A program made the position numbers and the translations under genes. Below are positions 3,057-51,546 of a stretch of DNA of 64,000 nt, one piece after another (position 1 is the stretch's first letter; each line of letters begins with the position of its first letter). The stretch comes from an uncultured Planctomycetia bacterium (GTDB lineage: Bacteria; Omnitrophota; Gorgyraeia; 1-14-0-20-64-10): the NCBI GenBank assembly GCA_964372395.1, contig CAYJQV010000003.1:11124-75123 (forward strand), given 5' to 3'. The notes beneath the pieces are model-generated. The model was not told the DNA's origin and did not search any database. It saw only the letters and a list, made by a program, of their open reading frames with translations.

Positions 3057-3851
3057 ATGAAACCGTACCTCGACCTTGTGCAGATGATCCTCGACCAGGG
3101 AGTGAAGAAATCGGACCGGACCGGGACCGGGACCCTCAGCCTCTTCGGGCATCAGATGCGTTTCAACCTGGCCGAGGGCTTTCCCCTGGTGACCACCAAG
3201 AAGGTTCACCTCAAGTCGGTGATCTACGAGCTGCTCTGGTTCCTTCGGGGGGATACCAACGTCCGCTACCTCCAGGAGCACGGGGTGACGATCTGGAACG
3301 AGTGGGCCGATGAGCAGGGCGAGCTGGGACCGGTCTACGGGGCCCAGTGGCGAAGCTGGCCGGCCCCGGATGGGCAGACGATCGATCAGATCAGCCGCGC
3401 CGTGGAGGAGATCCGCGCCCAGCCCGATTCCCGGCGACTCATCGTCTCCGCCTGGAATCCGGCGGAGCTGGATCGGATGAAGCTGCCGCCGTGCCACTGC
3501 CTCTTCCAGTTCTACGTGGCGGACGGCCGGCTCTCCTGCCAGCTCTACCAGCGCAGCGCCGACCTCTTCCTGGGTGTGCCCTTCAACATCGCCTCGTACG
3601 CCCTGCTCACCCTCATGTTCGCGCAGGTCTGCGCGCTCCAGCCCGGCGAATTCATCCATACCTTCGGGGACGTCCACCTCTACCTGACCCATCTGGAGCA
3701 GGCCCGGCTGCAGCTCGCCCGGACCCCTTATCCTCTGCCGCGGATGCGCCTCAACCCCCAGGTCCGCTCCCTCTTCGCCTTCACGTACGAAGATTTCACC
3801 CTGGAGGATTACCGGCACCACCCGGCCATCCCGGCCCCGGTGGCGGTGTGA
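3057..3851 (+). CDS. thyA: thymidylate synthase
   Basis: 264 aa with ThyA signatures (RTGTGTLS..., ...[12 protein letters not shown]..., [17 protein letters not shown]). Confidence 0.95.
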
Positions 3852-4384
3852 AGCTTTCCGTCATCGCGGCCGTCGCCCGAAACGGGGTGATCGGCAAAGG
3901 GGGCCGCCTGCCCTGGCATCTGCCGGCCGACCTGAAGCGCTTCAAGACACTGACCCTCGGCCACCCCGTCATCATGGGCCGCAGGACCTTCGAGTCGATC
4001 GGGAAACCGCTCCCCGGCCGCACCAACATCGTCGTCACGCACGAGAGAGACCTGAAGATCTGCGGCTGCCTGGTGGCCCCATCCTTCGAGAAGGCCCTGG
4101 AACTCTGCAATCAAGCTGAGGAGGCGTTCGTTCTGGGAGGTGCGAGCCTCTATGAACAGGCCTTGCCCCGGGCCGATCGGCTCTACCTGACCCGAATCCA
4201 TGCCGATTTCGAGGGGGACGCCCGGATGCCCCCTCTGGACTTAAGTCGCTGGAAGGAGATTTCCCGCGAGGACTTCTTGAGCGAGCCTCTGCCCTACAGC
4301 TTCATCACCTACGGGGGACGCTCCACTTTGGGACACACTGGTTGTGGAGGAGTGTCCCAAAGTGGAGCGTCCCCACATCGATGA
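3848..4384 (+). CDS. folA: dihydrofolate reductase; last ~22 codons encoded by palindromic repeat element
   Basis: A GTG start overlaps the thyA stop (GTGA). [52 protein letters not shown] is DHFR-family sequence. The tail [22 protein letters not shown] lies inside repeat element A. Confidence 0.85.
4314..4374. repeat. 61-bp palindromic repeat element, family A, copy 1 (23-bp perfect arms, 15-nt loop)
   Basis: GGGGACGCTCCACTTTGGGACAC-ACTGGTTGTGGAGGA-GTGTCCCAAAGTGGAGCGTCCCC. A near-identical copy is at about 41956-42014. Confidence 0.8.
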
Positions 4385-5811
4385 CGCTGTTTGAGAAGAT
4401 CTGGGAGCGGCACGTCGTGGCGGAGCTGCCCGACGGGAACGCCCTGCTGTACGTCGACCGGCATCTGGTCCACGAGGTGACCAGCCCGCAGGCGTTCGAG
4501 GGGCTGCGCCTCACCCGCCGGAAGGTCCGCCGGCCGGACCTCACCTTCGCCACGATGGATCACAACGTCCCCACCGATGATCGGATGAATATCCGGGACC
4601 CCATCTCCCGAGCGCAGGTGGAGGCCCTGGCCAGGAACTGCCGGGAGTTCGGGATCCCTCTGTACGACTTGAGCTCCGACAAGCAGGGGATCGTCCACAT
4701 CATCGGGCCGGAGCTGGGGCTCACCCTGCCGGGAACCACCGTGGTCTGCGGAGATTCGCACACCTCCACCCACGGGGCCTTCGGGACGCTCGCCTTCGGG
4801 ATCGGGACCTCCGAGGTGGAGCATGTCCTGGCGACCCAGTGCCTCACCCAGAAGAAGCCGAAGACGCTGCGGGTGGAGTTCGCCGGCACCCTGCCCCCGC
4901 ACGTGAGCTCCAAGGACATGATCCTCAAGCTCATCGGAACGATCGGAACCGCGGGCGGGACCGGCACCGTTTTCGAGTACACGGGCGAGGCGGTCCGGCG
5001 CCTCTCCATGGAGGCCCGGATGACGATCTGCAACATGTCGATCGAGGCCGGCGCCCGGGCCGGGATGATCGGGCCGGACGAGACCACCTTCAACTACATC
5101 AGCTCAGGGAACCGGCCCTTCGCGCCAAAAGGGAGGGCGCTGGAGCAGGCCATCTCCTTCTGGAAGAGTCTGCCGAGCGATCCGGACGCCGCCTTCGACC
5201 GCTCGGTCAGCATCAATTGCTCCGCCCTCGCCCCGCAGGTCACCTGGGGCACGAATCCCGGCATGGTCACCGACGTGACCGGCCGGGTCCCCTCGCCCGA
5301 TGGCGTGCCCGGATACACCGCAAGGGACGTGGAGCAGGCGCTGGCGTACATGGGGCTTGTCCCGGGCACCCCGATCACCAGGATCCGGGTGGACGCGGTC
5401 TTCATCGGAAGCTGCACCAACGCCCGGATCGAGGATCTGCGGACGGCGGCCAAGATCCTGAGCGGCCGCAAGGTCGCGCCGGGCGTGCGCGTGCTGGTCG
5501 TTCCCGGCTCCCAGCAGGTCCGCGCCCAGGCGGAAGCGGAAGGGCTGGATGAGATCTTCAAGGCGGCCGGATGCGACTGGCGTCAATCCGGCTGCAGCAT
5601 GTGCCTCGGGATGAATCCGGATCAGCTCAGGCCGGGCGAGCGGTGCGCTTCCACGTCCAACCGGAACTTCGAGGGCCGGCAGGGGAAGGGCGGCCGAACC
5701 CATCTGGTCAGCCCGGAGATGGCCGCGGCCGCCGCCCTCGCGGGTCATTTTGTCGACATCCAGAGCTGGCTGGGGTCAGACCCTCTGGGGTCTGACCCCA
5801 GTAGGGTTTGA
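4381..5811 (+). CDS. leuC: 3-isopropylmalate dehydratase large subunit
   Basis: [20 protein letters not shown]... with the aconitase-family Cys ligands. I place the start at the ATG overlapping the folA stop, whereas the ORF-track start at 4342 lies inside the repeat. The C-terminal [12 protein letters not shown] is encoded by the 15-mer repeat. Confidence 0.9.
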
Positions 5812-5812: not shown

Positions 5813-6429
5813 TGGATGCCTTTAAGTCGCATCGGGGGCTGATCGCGACGCTGGACCGGGCCAACGTGGACACCGATCAGATCATCCCGAAGCAGTTCCT
5901 GAAATCAATCGCCCGCACCGGCTTCGGGGAATCCCTCTTCTACGACTGGCGGTACCTGGCGGACGGGAAGCCCAATCCGGCCTTTGAGCTCAACCAGTCC
6001 CGCTTCCGGAAGGCCACGATCCTCGCCGCCCGCAGGAATTTCGGCTGCGGCTCCTCGCGCGAGCACGCGGTCTGGGCGATCCAGCAGTACGGCTTCCACG
6101 CGGTCGTCGCACCCTCCTTCGCCGACATCTTCAGGAACAACTCGGCGAAGAACGGGCTGCTCGCAGTGGAGCTGCAGGAGGCGGAGGTCGAGGAGATCTT
6201 TCAGATGGTGGGACGCTACGAGGGACTGGAGGCCACGGTGGATCTGGACCACCAGCGGGTGACCCTGCACCTGCCGGAGGAGGTCTCCTTCCGCTTCCAG
6301 ATCGATCCGGCGGTGAAGGAACATCTCATCCACGGGTTGGATGAGATCGGCTTGACGCTCAAGCGCGAAGGGGAGATCGCCGCCTTCGAGGCGCGGCACG
6401 ACCCGCAGCGGTTTACAGGAACCGGCTGA
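5812..6429 (+). CDS. leuD: 3-isopropylmalate dehydratase small subunit
   Basis: 205 aa LeuD-family protein (MDAFKSHRGLIATLDRANVDTDQIIPKQFLK...). Its start abuts the leuC stop. Confidence 0.9.
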   Translation: MDAFKSHRGLIATLDRANVDTDQIIPKQFLKSIARTGFGESLFYDWRYLADGKPNPAFELNQSRFRKATILAARRNFGCGSSREHAVWAIQQYGFHAVVAPSFADIFRNNSAKNGLLAVELQEAEVEEIFQMVGRYEGLEATVDLDHQRVTLHLPEEVSFRFQIDPAVKEHLIHGLDEIGLTLKREGEIAAFEARHDPQRFTGTG

Positions 6430-8605
6430 AGTAACGTTCCCCGGCGAGCAGGGCGCCGGTCACGTCCCCGGTCAGCGTCACACCGTATTCCCTCAGCTTC
6501 TCGGTCAGCTGCTCCAGCCAGTCCGGCCGGGTCGGATCTACCCAGTGGATCTCGTGGCCTGAGGCCAGAGGCCCGGCAATCGTCGTCCGGTCCTGCTCCA
6601 TGTCTGATACGACGTGAATCTGGGCGTGATCCGCAGCCACATGCGCTCCAGCCAGCAGCAGACGAACCTCTCGCGCCTCATCCTCCGTACGCACGAAGAC
6701 CAGGAGCCGCTGACCGCCCCGGGCCGGCAGGAGCATCCCGTAAAAAGTGCTGGGGTCATAGAAGGCCACGAGCAGCGGCCGGCGCGCCTCAACCGCCGCG
6801 GGCTGGCCTGTGACCGCCGCCACTTGATCCCAAGCACGGAGGGTTTCCTCGAGAAACTGGTGTGGGAACCACCGCCGGCGCAGGGCTTCGGAGAAACTCA
6901 TCTGCCTGTGAATGCGCCAGTAGGTGCTGAAGACTGTCTCCAAGCGAAACCGGATCGCCAACTCAAAATCCTCAAAGTCCTCCGGAAGTCCCGCCTCCGG
7001 AGGCTGCCCGGCCAGAATCCCATCCAGCGCGTCCAGCACCGACAGGTCGACCGGTCCCAGTGCTCCGGGGATCTCCGCTGTCAGAATCTCCCTCCCTCCC
7101 CGCAGCGCCCACCCGGCCCGCTCCCAATCATTGAATTCCCGCCTGGGATTGCCGGCGACTTCCTCCAGGACAGCCAGCATCTTCACCAGCGCCTCCCTGG
7201 CCCTCCCTCGCTCCTGAAGCAAACGATCCACCTCGTCCAGCGCTCCTTCGGCCGAAGATCGGGCCCTGCCCTGGGCTGAGCGCTCCACATACGTTCCGTG
7301 GCGGCTGCGCAGATCCTGGACCACAATGACCGGGACCGGCCGACCGCCCGCGGACCAGTTCTCTCGCCGAACCAGCGCGTGCGTCACCTCAACATCGCCT
7401 GCAGTCCACAGACCCACCACCGGGACGCCCCTTCTGCGGGCGGGGTGGTACGAGCCATCCCGCCCCACGTAAAACTCGTGATGGCCTCCAGCCACCATCT
7501 GACGCGTCCCATCCGGATTGATGACCTCCCAACGGGACCTGGAGGGATCCCCGGAAGGATCCTCCACCAGCTCAACCTTGATCTCCGCATCCGCCAGCCG
7601 CAGCCGGAAGCCGTCCGTTCTCAGGTCCCGGAAGAGAACGACGCTGCCGCCCCGGGGCACCTTCTGGTAGTAACGCTCGCCCATCCTCTGCAGTCCCACC
7701 GTGGCAAACGGCGCACCCTCCTGTGTGCGCAGCTCCAGGGCCTTCGAGACAACGCCCTCGAACTGTCGCGTCCAGAAATCGTGCTCCTCCACGATCTCAT
7801 GCCGCGCTGTCTCCGCCTCCGGCGGCAGGCCCATGACCCGTGGGTCGTGGTGCGGGATCTGGTCGGAAAAAAGCATACTCGCGTTGTACCGAAGATAGGG
7901 CGGATCCAGCCAGCCGCGCAGCTCCTGCAGGTCGTGCAGGAAGTTCAGAAGCGCTGCTACCTCTTCCCGACTCAGGCTGGCCGCGAACCGCTTCGGCCCC
8001 AACAGCACCTGGTAGCCATCTGACCGGATGGCCCAGATCATGCGGGGGATTTGCCGGTAATCCTCATAGACGAAGCTGCTGATCGCCGCCGCCTCCAGGG
8101 CGGTCAGCGGGGGCAGCCAGCGGCCCATCCCGATCGGCTGCAGCGACTGCCGCCTGCCCAGGGTCTCCCATTCATTCTCCCCATCGTACCGGAACCAGAC
8201 CTCCTCCATCCCGGCGGAGGCTGCCCCCAGCCCATCAATCGCGCGCCGAGGGCGCTTCATCGCTCCACGACGCGCGTTCTCCTCCGCCACCAGCGTACGG
8301 TAGTCGTGAGCGTAAAGGGTCCGTATGCTCACATCCGCCAGGGTGGCAAGCTCCCCTGCCGTCAGCCGGCCCCCAGGATGACGACGAAGCACGGACTTGA
8401 TCCGCTCATGCACACGCTGCCACCGGGGATCCTTTGACTCCGAGGACTGCTCCAGGCCAGCCGATGGGGAGAGCTTGCGCTCGAGCTCCTCCAGCCCGGT
8501 CCCCTCGACGCTGGGTTGGCGCAGCGCGAGAGCGGGGCTGGGAAGCCCTAAGGCAAAGGCCAGAAAAAGGGTCAGGTTTGTGTGGAACAAAAATCGCCGG
8601 CGCAT
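6413..8605 (-). CDS. large secreted hypothetical protein (signal peptide; no family recognised)
   Basis: A 730-aa ORF with an N-terminal signal-like MRRRFLFHTNLTLFLAFALGLPSPALA. Amino-acid composition is coding-like. I could not assign a domain by eye. Confidence 0.6.
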   Translation of the reverse strand: MRRRFLFHTNLTLFLAFALGLPSPALALRQPSVEGTGLEELERKLSPSAGLEQSSESKDPRWQRVHERIKSVLRRHPGGRLTAGELATLADVSIRTLYAHDYRTLVAEENARRGAMKRPRRAIDGLGAASAGMEEVWFRYDGENEWETLGRRQSLQPIGMGRWLPPLTALEAAAISSFVYEDYRQIPRMIWAIRSDGYQVLLGPKRFAASLSREEVAALLNFLHDLQELRGWLDPPYLRYNASMLFSDQIPHHDPRVMGLPPEAETARHEIVEEHDFWTRQFEGVVSKALELRTQEGAPFATVGLQRMGERYYQKVPRGGSVVLFRDLRTDGFRLRLADAEIKVELVEDPSGDPSRSRWEVINPDGTRQMVAGGHHEFYVGRDGSYHPARRRGVPVVGLWTAGDVEVTHALVRRENWSAGGRPVPVIVVQDLRSRHGTYVERSAQGRARSSAEGALDEVDRLLQERGRAREALVKMLAVLEEVAGNPRREFNDWERAGWALRGGREILTAEIPGALGPVDLSVLDALDGILAGQPPEAGLPEDFEDFELAIRFRLETVFSTYWRIHRQMSFSEALRRRWFPHQFLEETLRAWDQVAAVTGQPAAVEARRPLLVAFYDPSTFYGMLLPARGGQRLLVFVRTEDEAREVRLLLAGAHVAADHAQIHVVSDMEQDRTTIAGPLASGHEIHWVDPTRPDWLEQLTEKLREYGVTLTGDVTGALLAGERYFSRFL

Positions 8606-9836: not shown

Positions 9837-10305
9837 CGTAGTGCCAGCCCGTTTCCTTCAAGGTGAGCGGCTCCGCCGGCTTCCCCAGCCCCGCCTCCAC
9901 CACCTCGCCGACAACGATGGAGTGGTCGCCCGCCGGATGGATCGCCCGGACCCTGCACTCCAGGAAGGCCGGCGCCTCCTCAAGGATCGGCGCACCGGTC
10001 GAACCCGCACGGTGGGGAACCCCGGCCAGCTTGTCGCCCCCCAGGTGCGCCGGCTTGATGAAGTGCTGGGCGAGCGGCTTCTGGCCGGCCCCGAGCAGGT
10101 TCACCGCAAAAACGCCCGAGGCCTCGATCATCTGGAAGGAGAGACTGTCCTTGCGCACCCCCAAGGCGACCAGCGGCGGCTCGAAAGAGATCTGCGTGAC
10201 CCACGTGGCGGTGAAGGCGTTGCGGCGCTCGCCGTCGCAGACGCCGATCACGTAGACGCCGTGCACGATCCGGCGCAGCGCCTGCTTCTTCACCTCAGGA
10301 TCCAC
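9829..10305 (-). CDS. flavin reductase-like (FMN-binding split-barrel) protein
   Basis: RRIVHGVYVIGVCDGERRNAFTATWVTQISFEPPLVALGV... is the flavin reductase family. I place the start at the GTG at about 10303-10305; the longer upstream ORF-track extension is low-complexity and overlaps repeat locus 2. Confidence 0.75.
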   Translation of the reverse strand: MDPEVKKQALRRIVHGVYVIGVCDGERRNAFTATWVTQISFEPPLVALGVRKDSLSFQMIEASGVFAVNLLGAGQKPLAQHFIKPAHLGGDKLAGVPHRAGSTGAPILEEAPAFLECRVRAIHPAGDHSIVVGEVVEAGLGKPAEPLTLKETGWHYGG

Positions 10306-10306
10306 C

Positions 10307-10349
10307 GGGGTCAGACCCTCTGGGGTCAGACCCTCTGGGGTCTGACCCC
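10307..10349. repeat. 15-bp dyad repeat family B, locus 2 (two direct units + one inverted unit, tail CTATAGGGGTTATG)
   Basis: GGGGTCAGACCCTCT GGGGTCAGACCCTCT GGGGTCTGACCCC, intergenic between divergent genes. Confidence 0.8.
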
Positions 10350-10371
10350 AGCATGGTATGCTATAGGGGTT

Positions 10372-22042: not shown

Positions 22043-22346
22043 GGCGGCGGACAAGGTGCGTTCCCTGCAGCGGCAGGAGTCCAAGGAGGGATACGCCCTG
22101 CGGCTGCGCGTGGTGGGCGGCGGCTGCTCGGGCTATTCCTACAGCATGGACTTCGAGCAGAACCCCGGGCAGGGGGATCTGACGTTCGAGGATCATGGGG
22201 TGAAGATCCTCGTGGATCCGAAGTCCCTCGCCATGATCGACAACAGCCAGGTGGACTGGGTGGACGGGATGACGGGGGCCGGCTTCACCCTGCAGAATCC
22301 CAACGCCAAGGGGACCTGCGGCTGCGGGCACTCCTTCACCGTCTGA
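22017..22346 (+). CDS. A-type Fe-S carrier (SufA/IscA/ErpA family)
   Basis: ...GYALRLRVVGGGCSGYSYSMDF... and the C-terminal CGCGHSF motif with three conserved Cys. Confidence 0.85.
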   Translation: MEMITLTDKAADKVRSLQRQESKEGYALRLRVVGGGCSGYSYSMDFEQNPGQGDLTFEDHGVKILVDPKSLAMIDNSQVDWVDGMTGAGFTLQNPNAKGTCGCGHSFTV

Positions 22347-22414
22347 CGGACTTGGTCATCCCCGCGCTGACGGACTTGGTCATCCCCGCGCTGACGGACT
22401 TGGTCATCCCCGCG
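22344..22414. repeat. 24-bp tandem direct repeat x3 starting at the A-type carrier stop codon (TGACGGACTTGGTCATCCCCGCGC), ending in GC hairpins
   Basis: Units sit at about 22344-22367, 22368-22391 and 22392-22414. The last unit runs into the hairpin CCCCGCG-aaa-GCGGGG and then GGGAG-cgga-CTCCC. Confidence 0.75.
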
Positions 22415-41393: not shown

Positions 41394-41957
41394 TTACGAT
41401 GCATTCATCGCCTCCTTGAATCGGTCGGTGATCTCCTCCGGGGAAAGCCGCACCCGCTCCGCGGGGGCCGCCGTATCCGGCTGACACTTCACCAGAAGAA
41501 AAGCCGGACCGGCGCTGGAGCGAACCTCGCGCCACGCGGCTGCCAGCTCCCCCGGATCCCGGGCCGTCCGCACCGCCGCGTACCCACAGGCCGACGCCAC
41601 TGCCGAAAGCGCCACGCGGTCGGAGTAGGTGGCCTGATTTCCCGTCGAGGCATACGCCTCGTTGTCCAGGGCCACGTGAATCAGCCGCCTCGGCCCAATC
41701 GCCCCGATCATCCCCAGCACCCCCATCCCCATCAGGATCGCCCCGTCCCCGTCCAGCACCACCACAGGAAGCTCCGGCCGGCACAGGGCAATCCCCAGGC
41801 CGATCGGCGCCGCCAGGCCCATCGACCCGATCATGTAAAAATTGCCCGGCCGGTCCGCGCAGGCCTGCATCTCCCGGCAGGTGTAGCCGGTGGTGCAGAC
41901 CACCAGCTCCTCCTCGAGCTGCCCGGCGAGGATCCCGATCGCCTCCCGCGTCGTCAT
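41394..41957 (-). CDS. TPP-dependent phosphonopyruvate (or sulfopyruvate) decarboxylase, beta subunit (C-terminal TPP-binding domain)
   Basis: ...GSMGLAAPIGLGIALCRPELPVVVLDGDGAILMGMG...ALDNEAYASTGNQ... (TPP motif GDG-x24-N). My start choice is MTTREAIG, overlapping the alpha-subunit stop. Confidence 0.75.
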   Translation of the reverse strand: MTTREAIGILAGQLEEELVVCTTGYTCREMQACADRPGNFYMIGSMGLAAPIGLGIALCRPELPVVVLDGDGAILMGMGVLGMIGAIGPRRLIHVALDNEAYASTGNQATYSDRVALSAVASACGYAAVRTARDPGELAAAWREVRSSAGPAFLLVKCQPDTAAPAERVRLSPEEITDRFKEAMNAS

Positions 41958-42506
41958 TGGGGACGCTCTACTTTGGGACACTCCGGTTGCTGGTGTGTCC
42001 CAAAATGGAGCGTCCCCCGGATCAGGAGGGCCGCCGGGATCCGCTCCCTTCGCATGAAGGCGTCCGCCCGGCCGATCGCCTCGCCGAGCTCCCCCGGCTC
42101 CGGAACCCAGACCGGAATCCCCACCTGCCGCAGAAGCGCCTCACAGTGCCGGCCCATCACCCGGTGCTCCGGCGCGTCCTTCCCCTGATACCCCCTGTAG
42201 CCCACCAGGAGCATCGCCGGAATCCGGTAGATGAGATTGAGCGAGGTCAGCGCATTGAGGCAGTAGCCGATCCCCGAATTCTGCATGAGGACCGCGGGCC
42301 ACCGGCCCGCCAGATATGCCCCAGCGGCAAGCCCCACCGCCGCGTCCTCACGAACCGCTGGGACGTATCCGACCGGATCCTGCTCCAGCTGCTCGATGAG
42401 GGAGGCCACCAGGGAATCCGCCACCCCCGTGAAAAAATTGAAGCCGCAGCCCTTCAGGGATCCCAGGCACCCTTCCGCCGCGCCGACCGCGCCCGCCAAC
42501 TTCATG
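41954..42506 (-). CDS. TPP-dependent phosphonopyruvate (or sulfopyruvate) decarboxylase, alpha subunit (N-terminal PYR domain); last ~20 codons encoded by repeat element A
   Basis: MKLAGAVG...[18 protein letters not shown]...[34 protein letters not shown]... is the ComD/Ppd N-terminal domain. The start overlaps the hpnH stop (ATGA). Confidence 0.75.
41956..42014. repeat. palindromic repeat element family A, copy 2
   Basis: GGGGACGCTCTACTTTGGGACAC-TCCGGTTGCTGGTGT-GTCCCAAAATGGAGCGTCCCC, with arms about 95% identical to copy 1 and a related loop. Confidence 0.8.
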
Positions 42507-50621: not shown

Positions 50622-51546
50622 GGCCCAGAAGCCCCATCTTGCAGAGTTTCGACAGAACAGGCCGGCCCCTGAAGACGTCGTACCGGAGCCCCTCGATCCG
50701 GTCGAGGATCGCCCGGCCGCCCAGCAGGGTGAGCTTCAGCTCCAATCGGAGCGGCCCGGACACTGCCCGGATGAGCGGCTCCCCTTCGTCGAAGAGCCGC
50801 CGCGCCCGCCCGACCAGATCCGCCATGAGGGCCCGGAACGACGGGGTCAGACCCCGTGGGGTCAGACCCCGTGGGGTCAGACCCCGCGGGGTCAGACCCC
50901 AATAGGTTTTAAGCTCCTCTTCGGAGACGCCGTGCTCCCGCATCAGCGAATGCGGAACGTACAGCATCCCCCTCGCCCAGTCGATCCGCAGATCCTGCCA
51001 GTGGTTGGTGAGCTGCAGCGCCGTGCAGATCCGGTCGGACTGCTCGTGCAGCGCCGGCTCCCCGATCCCGAACGCCAGCAGCACCAGCCGGCCGACCGGA
51101 TTCGCCGAGTACCGGCAATAGGTCAGAAGCTCCTCCCAGTCGGCGTACCGCTTCTTCGTGACGTCCATCCTGAAGGCGGTGAGCAGGTCGTCGAGCAGCT
51201 GGACCGGCAGGCCGCGCCGCCGCACCGTGTCGCCGATCGCCAGGAAGATCGGGTGGCCGTTCAGAGCGGCGCCTGCCGGCCGTGCCGCCTGCCCCGCTCC
51301 GTCCCCGCACGCCGCCCGCAGCGCCGCCCGCCAACGCTCCAACAGCTCCAGCGACCGGCCCCGGTATTTCAGCTCATCCGCGAAATCATCCGCCGACCTC
51401 GCAAAGGCGTAGATCGCGGCGATGTGCGGGCGGACAGCCCGGGGCAGCAGCCACGACGCCACAGGGAAATTCTCGTAGTGGCCATAGGTGATCCACTCGC
51501 AATAGCGGTACGCCTGAGCCAGCTGCGGTTCCATGACCTGAACCAT
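50605..51546 (-). CDS. hpnC: hydroxysqualene synthase (squalene/phytoene synthase family) carrying an in-frame 20-aa GLTPR x4 repeat insertion
   Basis: ...AAIYAFARSADDFADE..., ...CTALQLTNHWQDLRID.... The internal WGLTPRGLTPRGLTPRGLTP is encoded by four 15-bp family-B repeat units. Confidence 0.85.
   Translation of the reverse strand: MVQVMEPQLAQAYRYCEWITYGHYENFPVASWLLPRAVRPHIAAIYAFARSADDFADELKYRGRSLELLERWRAALRAACGDGAGQAARPAGAALNGHPIFLAIGDTVRRRGLPVQLLDDLLTAFRMDVTKKRYADWEELLTYCRYSANPVGRLVLLAFGIGEPALHEQSDRICTALQLTNHWQDLRIDWARGMLYVPHSLMREHGVSEEELKTYWGLTPRGLTPRGLTPRGLTPSFRALMADLVGRARRLFDEGEPLIRAVSGPLRLELKLTLLGGRAILDRIEGLRYDVFRGRPVLSKLCKMGLLGRALLP
50843..50913. repeat. 15-bp dyad repeat family B, locus 3 (four direct units, tail AATAGGTTTTAAG), inside hpnC coding sequence
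   Basis: GGGGTCAGACCCCGT x2, GGGGTCAGACCCCGC, GGGGTCAGACCCC. Confidence 0.8.

Follow-up and report, generated by a model that had tools for sequence, protein, structure and literature searches.

What is an almost perfect palindrome doing between genes that overlap one another, and how did it come to be translated as the end of the upstream protein? The question is raised by a stretch of 64,000 nt from an uncultured Planctomycetia bacterium placed by GTDB in the Omnitrophota (assembly GCA_964372395.1, contig CAYJQV010000003.1, positions 11,124 to 75,123; the whole stretch is called the window here). A preliminary description, made from the letters of the window, had reported a 61-bp palindromic element (family A) at two translationally coupled junctions, one between folA, which encodes dihydrofolate reductase (DHFR), and leuC, and the other between the alpha and beta genes of a thiamine pyrophosphate (TPP)-dependent decarboxylase. 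We found that both copies belong to a dispersed family and that orthologous junctions exist without it. The feature is likely a small, non-autonomous mobile palindrome resembling REPINs (hairpin-forming doublets of repetitive extragenic palindromic, REP, sequences) or miniature transposable elements with inverted repeats (MITEs), which is tolerated in the gene ends of a very compact genome.

Two copies of the element in the window

The two copies are as follows.

4314-4374, no strand: family-A palindromic element, copy 1 (left arm 4314-4336, loop 4337-4351, right arm 4352-4374)
41959-42017, no strand: family-A palindromic element, copy 2 (arms 41959-41981 and 41995-42017, loop 41982-41994)

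Copy 1, for which the coordinates given before were exact, is a palindrome of 61 nt with a 15-nt loop. Its 23-nt arms are complementary at 23 of 23 positions, the arm being GGGGACGCTCCACTTTGGGACAC and the right arm its exact reverse complement. Copy 2 had been put at about 41956-42014; it is real and lies about 3 nt from that estimate, with a length of 59 nt, 23-nt arms and a 13-nt loop. Each of its arms differs from the copy 1 arm at one of 23 positions, which agrees with the arm identity of about 95% noted earlier. When the 23-mer was searched with up to 3 mismatches, the window gave four matches, namely the two arms of each of the two elements, against 0.00 expected from 100 shuffles.

A covariance model was made from family members and run over the 64 kb with filters off. 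It recovered copies 1 and 2 only, at 72-81 bits, and the next matches (22-28 bits) represented another repeat family. Copy 1 scored 81.2 bits on the plus strand and 72.3 bits on the minus strand, while the two orientations of copy 2 were nearly level (75.1 vs 73.8 bits) and the family alignment preferred this copy in reverse complement. Because copy 2 can be aligned to the family consensus almost equally well either way round, the loop motif that had been read as common to both copies on the plus strand is not reliable homology and should not be relied on.

The predicted RNA folds (copy 1, -52.6/-51.6 kcal/mol; copy 2, -47.7/-44.3 kcal/mol; z about -9 to -10) were stronger than the value of about -40 kcal/mol that had been expected. 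Rfam at gathering thresholds gave nothing in the window, and its sub-threshold matches were eukaryotic microRNA hairpin models only. The U-run of an intrinsic terminator was not found after either hairpin, copy 1 being followed by ACAUCGAUGAC and copy 2 by AAUGACGACG; some family members elsewhere are followed by T-runs (locus L004). The idea that the element is open in all six frames by design was rejected: copy 2 has one stop, and freedom from stops in six frames was seen in 15% of random 61-mers of the window and in 29% of synthetic palindromes.

Both copies are translated by the upstream gene

The genes at the two junctions are listed below.

3848..4384, plus: folA (dihydrofolate reductase), 178 aa including the element-encoded tail; Pfam DHFR_1; its GTG start overlaps the thyA stop (GTGA)
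4313..4381, plus: DHFR tail, 23 codons from read-through of copy 1, present in no aligned orthologue
4381..5811, plus: leuC; its ATG at 4381, 6 nt past the element, overlaps the folA stop (ATGA 4381-4384)
41954..42505, minus: alpha subunit of a TPP-dependent decarboxylase of phosphonopyruvate/sulfopyruvate type, 183 aa, of which the last 20 codons (41957-42016) are element-encoded
41394..41957, minus: decarboxylase beta subunit, 187 aa; its ATG (41957-41955), 1 nt past the element, overlaps the alpha stop (ATGA)

Copy 1 sits within a thyA-folA-leuC-leuD operon. The open reading frame (ORF) of folA traverses the element and stops at the TGA of ATGA 4381-4384, the ATG of which starts leuC; on the minus strand, the alpha ORF traverses copy 2 and stops at the TGA of ATGA 41957-41954, where beta starts. 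The read-through and the downstream start at an ATGA overlap had been proposed for both junctions and were confirmed at both. The roughly 20 additional residues proposed for each protein amount to 23 codons in DHFR and 20 codons in alpha.

The downstream starts need some care. Solved LeuC-type structures align with LeuC from MTLFEKI onwards, and therefore the ATG at 4381 is taken as the leuC start. The longest leuC ORF opens at a TTG (4342), and the public record starts leuC at an ATG in the right arm (4360). At the other junction, a GTG at 41981, within an arm, opens the longest beta ORF; the beta gene calls in the public record and in a relative with an empty site both gave the same 187-aa protein. 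The genes near copy 2 encode an aminotransferase, a CDP-alcohol phosphatidyltransferase-like protein and a membrane protein similar to lysylphosphatidylglycerol (LPG) synthase. Among the called-gene junctions around copy 1, 11 of 21 overlap and one more (leuC/leuD) abuts.

The window was compared with the public record CAMTXW010000040.1, and only two differences were found in 16,429 overlapping bases, both inside copy 1. The bases at 4348 and 4361 (L014 8537 and 8550) are A in the window and T in the record. In the record version the arms are complementary at 22 of 23 positions and the right arm contains an in-frame ATG, which the gene caller used as the leuC start. Since both differences fall inside copy 1, such hairpins seem prone to error or polymorphism, and the copy 1 hairpin may be a hotspot of one or the other. 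The same finding, that the sole two differences in 16.4 kb fall in the palindrome, is what would favour an assembly or sequencing artefact at contig junctions. The elements are not regarded as artefacts because independent assemblies carry them: the NCBI metagenome-assembled genome (MAG) has them, and so do independent Logan assemblies of other runs (L053, L048) and a large number of unrelated metagenomes. In an independent Logan assembly the element is identical to copy 2, and the surroundings of copy 2 show two differences in 6.5 kb (39014 and 44307), both outside the element. The surrounding ORF structure is also coherent, and we regard an artefact as hardly credible.

Orthologous proteins end without the tails

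The closest homologues of DHFR and alpha are named as Candidatus Omnitrophica or Omnitrophota. The DHFR orthologues are 157-161 aa long and end in ...TYE(R/K)x, and the 23-residue tail occurs in none of those aligned. AlphaFold predicted residues 161-178, which are most of the tail, with a predicted local distance difference test (pLDDT) score of 46-49, while the preceding beta-sheet core reached 87-94. When the DHFR tail was compared exhaustively with 1.84 billion representatives by phmmer, two unrelated repetitive proteins were the only matches, and a protein word search with synthetic element peptides gave no candidate with three common words. The tails of DHFR and alpha read different frames of the same element DNA.

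The same comparison was made at the nucleotide level. In the syntenic locus L051 the element is not present at the folA-leuC junction, folA ending in ...YEKRSSS* with 16 nt before the ATG. An alpha orthologue (P0122) that is 96% identical, with 92.5% DNA identity over 2 kb, has no element, ends in ...LLMRPGVLPA* and retains the ATGA overlap. Relative to this empty site, the filled alpha/beta site has the 17 nt CCGGGGGTATTGCCCGC exchanged for the 59 nt of the element, a net addition of 42 nt that keeps the frame. A more distant orthologue (P0121; 85.7% DNA identity) carries the same alpha/beta insertion with the same arm variants, a loop 3 nt shorter and a TTGA junction.

Judged from these alignments, the tails of DHFR and alpha are not native C-termini; the element was gained at both junctions of the window, where native last codons were lost and the element is now part of the ORFs. 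The net gain is 14-20 residues per protein, and the extra residues are probably unstructured. That the tails are instead selected C-terminal extensions, with the palindrome incidental, appears very improbable. Both tails are in frame and kept in independent assemblies, and the alpha tail is common to the relative with 85.7% nucleotide identity. Against this, the two tails use different frames, orthologues do without them, the DHFR tail is predicted to be disordered and has no relatives in the exhaustive protein search, and the constraint lies on the DNA arms and not on the peptide.

A family of palindromes in other genomes and metagenomes

Species-representative genomes and metagenomes were scanned for exact arms. 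The scans gave 13 genome loci and 30 metagenome loci. Twelve of the genome loci are family members, and the remaining one, a Lachnospiraceae locus (L013), was rejected as the single chance match that is expected for a pattern with 20 specified bases in 596 Gb. The genome loci belong to Omnitrophota MAGs and to MAGs named 'uncultured Planctomycetia', with a GC content of 47-65%, and the family ranges over Omnitrophota-like and other uncultured bacteria of the Planctomycetes-Verrucomicrobia-Chlamydiae (PVC) type. The preliminary description had called the element REP/MITE-like and had accepted that this would fall if no further copies existed and if orthologues shared the tails. Related copies were found in other Omnitrophota-like genomes and in metagenomes, and the orthologues lack the tails, so that the REP/MITE-like reading withstood its own refuting condition and is supported.

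The arm module consists of GGGGACGCTCCA, four A/T-rich bases (W4) and GGGACAC, usually followed by WCYRG, and is nearly invariant. Seven of 20 paired elements have perfect arms. In another eight the central tetranucleotide does not pair (TTTT faces TTTA or AAAAA), so that the stem is divided into a basal helix of 12 bp and an apical helix of 7 bp. Loops of 10-57 nt, not conserved, give elements of 56-103 nt, and about half of the loci hold single arms. Direct repeats flanking the element were found at no copy. The four flanking bases are 61-73% A/T (mean about 69%) compared with a background of 40%.

Elements at unrelated loci of one MAG are 95.5-98.5% identical, loops included, while their flanks are only 40-48% identical. 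Two orthologous pairs have arms identical at 45 of 46 positions, compared with 81-87% for the coding flanks. The scans found two or three exact-arm copies per MAG; two lie in the 64 kb of the window. Searches of viral contigs and of the records of phages and plasmids gave no match to the arm, and its sequence was not printed in searchable published text. A survey of REP sequences that was searched for these taxa does not mention Omnitrophota or Planctomycetes.

Position of family members relative to genes

The gene context of the family copies was examined by a crude ORF survey based on GC content at third codon positions (GC3). In 8 of 23 pairs the upstream gene stops 1-8 nt short of the element, often with a TAG that is joined directly to the element's first G, and the downstream start follows 0-60 nt past the element. 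At least five copies are translated (three as tails, two internally) and two contain the stop codon; in L037 and L041 the stop codon is located 12 nt inside the arm variant CCATAAAGG. Some copies lie between convergent genes, and the orientation of the copies relative to the genes is not uniform.

Several loci illustrate this range. L018 contains two 101-nt elements (1718-1818 and 2413-2513) at junctions that are overlapping or compact in the window at 36.4-39.2 kb. The syntenic operon encodes a NAD-dependent epimerase-like protein, a nucleosidase-like protein and an unidentified 403-aa gene product, with a squalene-hopene cyclase nearby in the window, and the only possible in-frame start codon of the downstream gene in L018 lies in the right arm (AAATGGAG). 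An in-frame element in L044 (4284-4344) interrupts HemB (porphobilinogen synthase) just past the HGHCG metal-site motif and adds an 18-residue insert relative to solved structures. Another in L007 (3935-3994) lies within RecJ and corresponds to an insert of about 16 residues, again relative to solved structures.

The preliminary description had placed the element precisely at intercistronic junctions. This holds for both copies of the window; it does not hold for the family, whose members lie typically just after a stop codon or inside genes. The window copies are the read-through end of a positional spectrum and do not form a junction-only class. Because typical members follow a stop codon without read-through and others are in frame inside genes, the presence of copies at junctions seems to reflect tolerance, or an A/T-rich target, more than a device dedicated to junctions.

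Probable mobility and a candidate mobiliser

Filled and empty orthologous sites were found at the alpha/beta junction, at the folA-leuC junction and at the two L018 junctions. No transposase is encoded in the window. A single family-A arm in L020 (100-122) is fused to the TAG stop of a gene of succinyl-CoA ligase alpha type, and 90 nt past this arm an ORF of 70 codons (212-421) matches Y1_Tnp (PF01797) at 25.3 bits against a cut-off of 23. Its best NCBIfam match is the REP-associated tyrosine transposase (RAYT) model NF047646 (E = 1.6e-6, model positions 3-64 of 146). The gene is cut short, to its N-terminal half, by an insertion of the IS256 family (Transposase_mut, 421-1798) with its own 18-nt imperfect inverted repeats, which are unrelated to the arms, and the contig ends before the far side of the gene. 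Screening all loci for the motif HUH...YxxNP gave nothing and missed this truncated gene, which was found by a Pfam scan of ORFs beside single arms. A REP-associated Y1 (HUH) tyrosine transposase would be the likely mobiliser of the family.

Several points weigh against a mobile palindrome of the REPIN type. Apart from L020, no RAYT-like motif was found in 286 kb of loci, and the link to RAYT is one truncated gene in one metagenomic contig of 1.8 kb, with a chance adjacency estimated at about 5%. No GT[AG]G guide tetranucleotide accompanies the arms, the flanks of which are variable and A/T-rich, and the arm is not a clear palindrome, having only a 3-bp GGA/TCC self-complement around CGC; the GT[AG]G guide is missing from some RAYT subclasses too (PMC6006769). 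The filled alpha/beta site is no clean insertion, since 59 nt stand in place of 17 nt. The insertion state there also ignores flank divergence, the relative with 92.5% identity being empty and that with 85.7% identity being filled (L045, L048); strain recombination or repeated site-specific insertion could produce this pattern. Only two copies were seen in the 64 kb of this MAG. The conservation of the arms fits a cognate protein or host selection and is by itself no sign of selfishness.

A different mobile origin was also considered, in which the element is a classical MITE, that is, a deletion derivative of a DDE insertion sequence whose arms serve as 23-bp terminal inverted repeats (TIRs) and which is mobilised in trans by that insertion sequence and not by a Y1 transposase. 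The long near-perfect terminal inverted repeats, the length of 56-103 nt, the A/T-rich flanks and the IS256-family transposase in L020 are consistent with it. We consider it distinctly unlikely: the target-site duplication is absent at every copy, no locus among those searched has two arms around a transposase-sized segment, the IS256-type element of L020 has unrelated inverted repeats and interrupts the RAYT-like gene, and single arms are common, which is a better match to REP singlets. The arms and the GGGGTCTGAC repeat may resemble the terminal repeat of Tn3; no 5-bp duplications are present.

Possible consequences at coupled junctions

For a tolerated mobile palindrome, the course of events could have been as follows. 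The genome is so compact that most junctions overlap and almost no neutral intergenic DNA exists, and therefore the surviving copies would be those that landed in the last few codons of a gene. Copy 1 has replaced the last codons of folA and copy 2 the last six codons of the alpha gene, and each ORF now traverses the element before it reaches the ancestral TGA within the ATGA overlap.

The predicted mRNA stem (-48 to -53 kcal/mol) would end 6 nt (copy 1) and 1 nt (copy 2) before the downstream ATG. The only Shine-Dalgarno-like bases near that ATG, GGAG and GAG (13 and 8 nt upstream, respectively), would be held in the 3' arm. Once folded, the stem would shut out free 30S subunits from the downstream start. 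If the initiation region is hidden in this way, the downstream gene would therefore be translated mainly by ribosomes that finish the upstream ORF. This geometry suggests that coupling by termination and reinitiation is enforced. The perfect 23-bp stem could also plausibly be a substrate of RNase III or a block to exonucleases.

Such effects bring in another explanation, in which the host has co-opted the element and selects for it as a regulatory hairpin or a site of protein binding that sets the relative expression of the neighbouring cistrons by coupling, RNase III cleavage, 3'-end protection or stalling at the stop. The almost invariant arms across genomes of 47-65% GC (45/46 positions, against 81-87% in the flanks) would fit it, although a transposase that recognises the arms would be expected to conserve them just as well. 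Eight of 23 pairs lie 1-8 nt past a stop, which is the distance at which E. coli REP sequences (up to 15 nt past stop codons) stall terminating ribosomes according to the passage of PMC12306157 that cites Liang et al. 2015. A second, unrelated hairpin family also occurs at a junction of the same operon, at leuC-leuD here and at folA-leuC in a relative. On the other side, the orthologous junctions work without the element, the copies show no consistent context (RecJ, HemB, between convergent genes, single arms), and their orientation to the genes varies. A host-selected regulatory hairpin is rather unlikely in our view. A bolder form of the mobile reading combines both aspects: a REPIN-type system with a Y1 partner would routinely colonise coding sequence in a free-living phylum, its bipartite arms being kept nearly invariant through recognition by a trans-acting protein, and at overlapping junctions it would act as a portable coupling module that even donates starts (L018) and stops (L037, L041). 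We regard this form as improbable.

Other repeats and inserts

The second palindromic family consists of GGGGTCAGACCCC / GGGGTCTGACCCC units and was located at 5771-5800, 10299-10350 and 50842-50901 of the window and at 1113-1146 of L050. The leuC gene reads through the copy at leuC-leuD, which has a fold of -32.7 kcal/mol (z = -5.3), while the LeuC of L051 ends in ...RRWS*; in L050 the family occupies the folA-leuC junction, where folA reads through it. Positions 22343-22414 of the window hold three perfect units of a 24-nt tandem repeat (CTGACGGACTTGGTCATCCCCGCG), in a short spacer after an ORF that ends in ...CGCGHSFTV* and looks IscA/HesB-like by eye. On the minus strand, 6413-8605 holds a 730-aa ORF that is a called gene in the public record and has no recorded Pfam match. 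Several Omnitrophota-like DHFRs (P0064, P0068 and P0073; L051 1758-1832) contain an internal insert of about 20 residues, DRGATAQRSEEMVALPLSADRG. This insert was tried as a third repeat family and rejected, its hairpin being not significant (z = -1.35) and unrepeated in the loci examined.

Implications

Small palindromic mobile repeats appear to be active among Omnitrophota-like bacteria, and almost all that is known of this phylum comes from metagenomes. The kind of element is already known, both as a REPIN/MITE-like repeat and as in-frame translation of the sort described for Rickettsia palindromic elements (RPEs), and no new mechanism is proposed. Where intergenic DNA is near zero, repeats would survive by being taken up into genes, where they form C-terminal tails or loops within essential enzymes. 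For annotation, start codons in the arms mislead gene callers, as with leuC in the public record and the GTG offered for beta, and where a MAG protein has a tail or an insert of about 20 residues, this may be repeat DNA and not protein biology. If the coupling holds, these junctions would be a natural system in which a very stable stem inside an ORF meets termination-reinitiation. If the REPIN-type coupling module were true, Omnitrophota would add another RPE-like case, independent of the first, whose effect on operon stoichiometry could be tested.

Comparison with known systems

The family resembles REPINs and bacterial interspersed mosaic elements (BIMEs) in that a conserved short sequence occurs both as inverted doublets, which form a long hairpin with a variable spacer, and as singlets (PMC3337134, PMC6006769). 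It also shares with REPINs the absence of a target-site duplication. Copies in tiny intergenic spaces, often right after stops, occur beside the translated ones, and near-identical copies recur within a genome. One arm adjoins a truncated gene whose best NCBIfam match is the REP-associated tyrosine transposase model. The family differs in having no GT[AG]G guide, an arm that is no clear imperfect palindrome, and several copies translated within coding sequence. Its hosts are uncultured Omnitrophota and other PVC bacteria, and its transposase partner is only a candidate.

RPEs are similar in that an in-frame palindrome occurs in unrelated housekeeping genes (here those of DHFR, alpha, HemB and RecJ) with the protein not obviously destroyed (PMC10969869). 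They differ in length, about 100-150 bp compared with 56-103 nt, and the family has no single conserved peptide frame. The hosts are unrelated to those of RPEs and the sequence appears to be so as well (features from PMC10969869), and most family members lie just outside ORFs. In-frame fusions of MITEs and RPEs have been described, including intragenic enterobacterial repetitive intergenic consensus (ERIC) elements and QMITE1 (PMC10969869).

The intercistronic REP sequences of E. coli, mRNA stabilisers of the malE-malF type, likewise form a stable hairpin between co-transcribed genes, and family members are typically 1-8 nt past the stop (PMC12306157 for the REP sequences). The copies of the window differ from them in having no intervening stop, so that the ribosome must translate through the stem.

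In the coat-replicase junction of phage MS2, translation is coupled by an mRNA structure that masks the downstream ribosome-binding site. By their geometry, the junctions of the window would be similar, the start and the Shine-Dalgarno-like bases being at or in the foot of a stem that only the upstream ribosome would open. The difference lies in the origin of the structure, which in the window appears to have come with a mobile repeat and not to have evolved in place.

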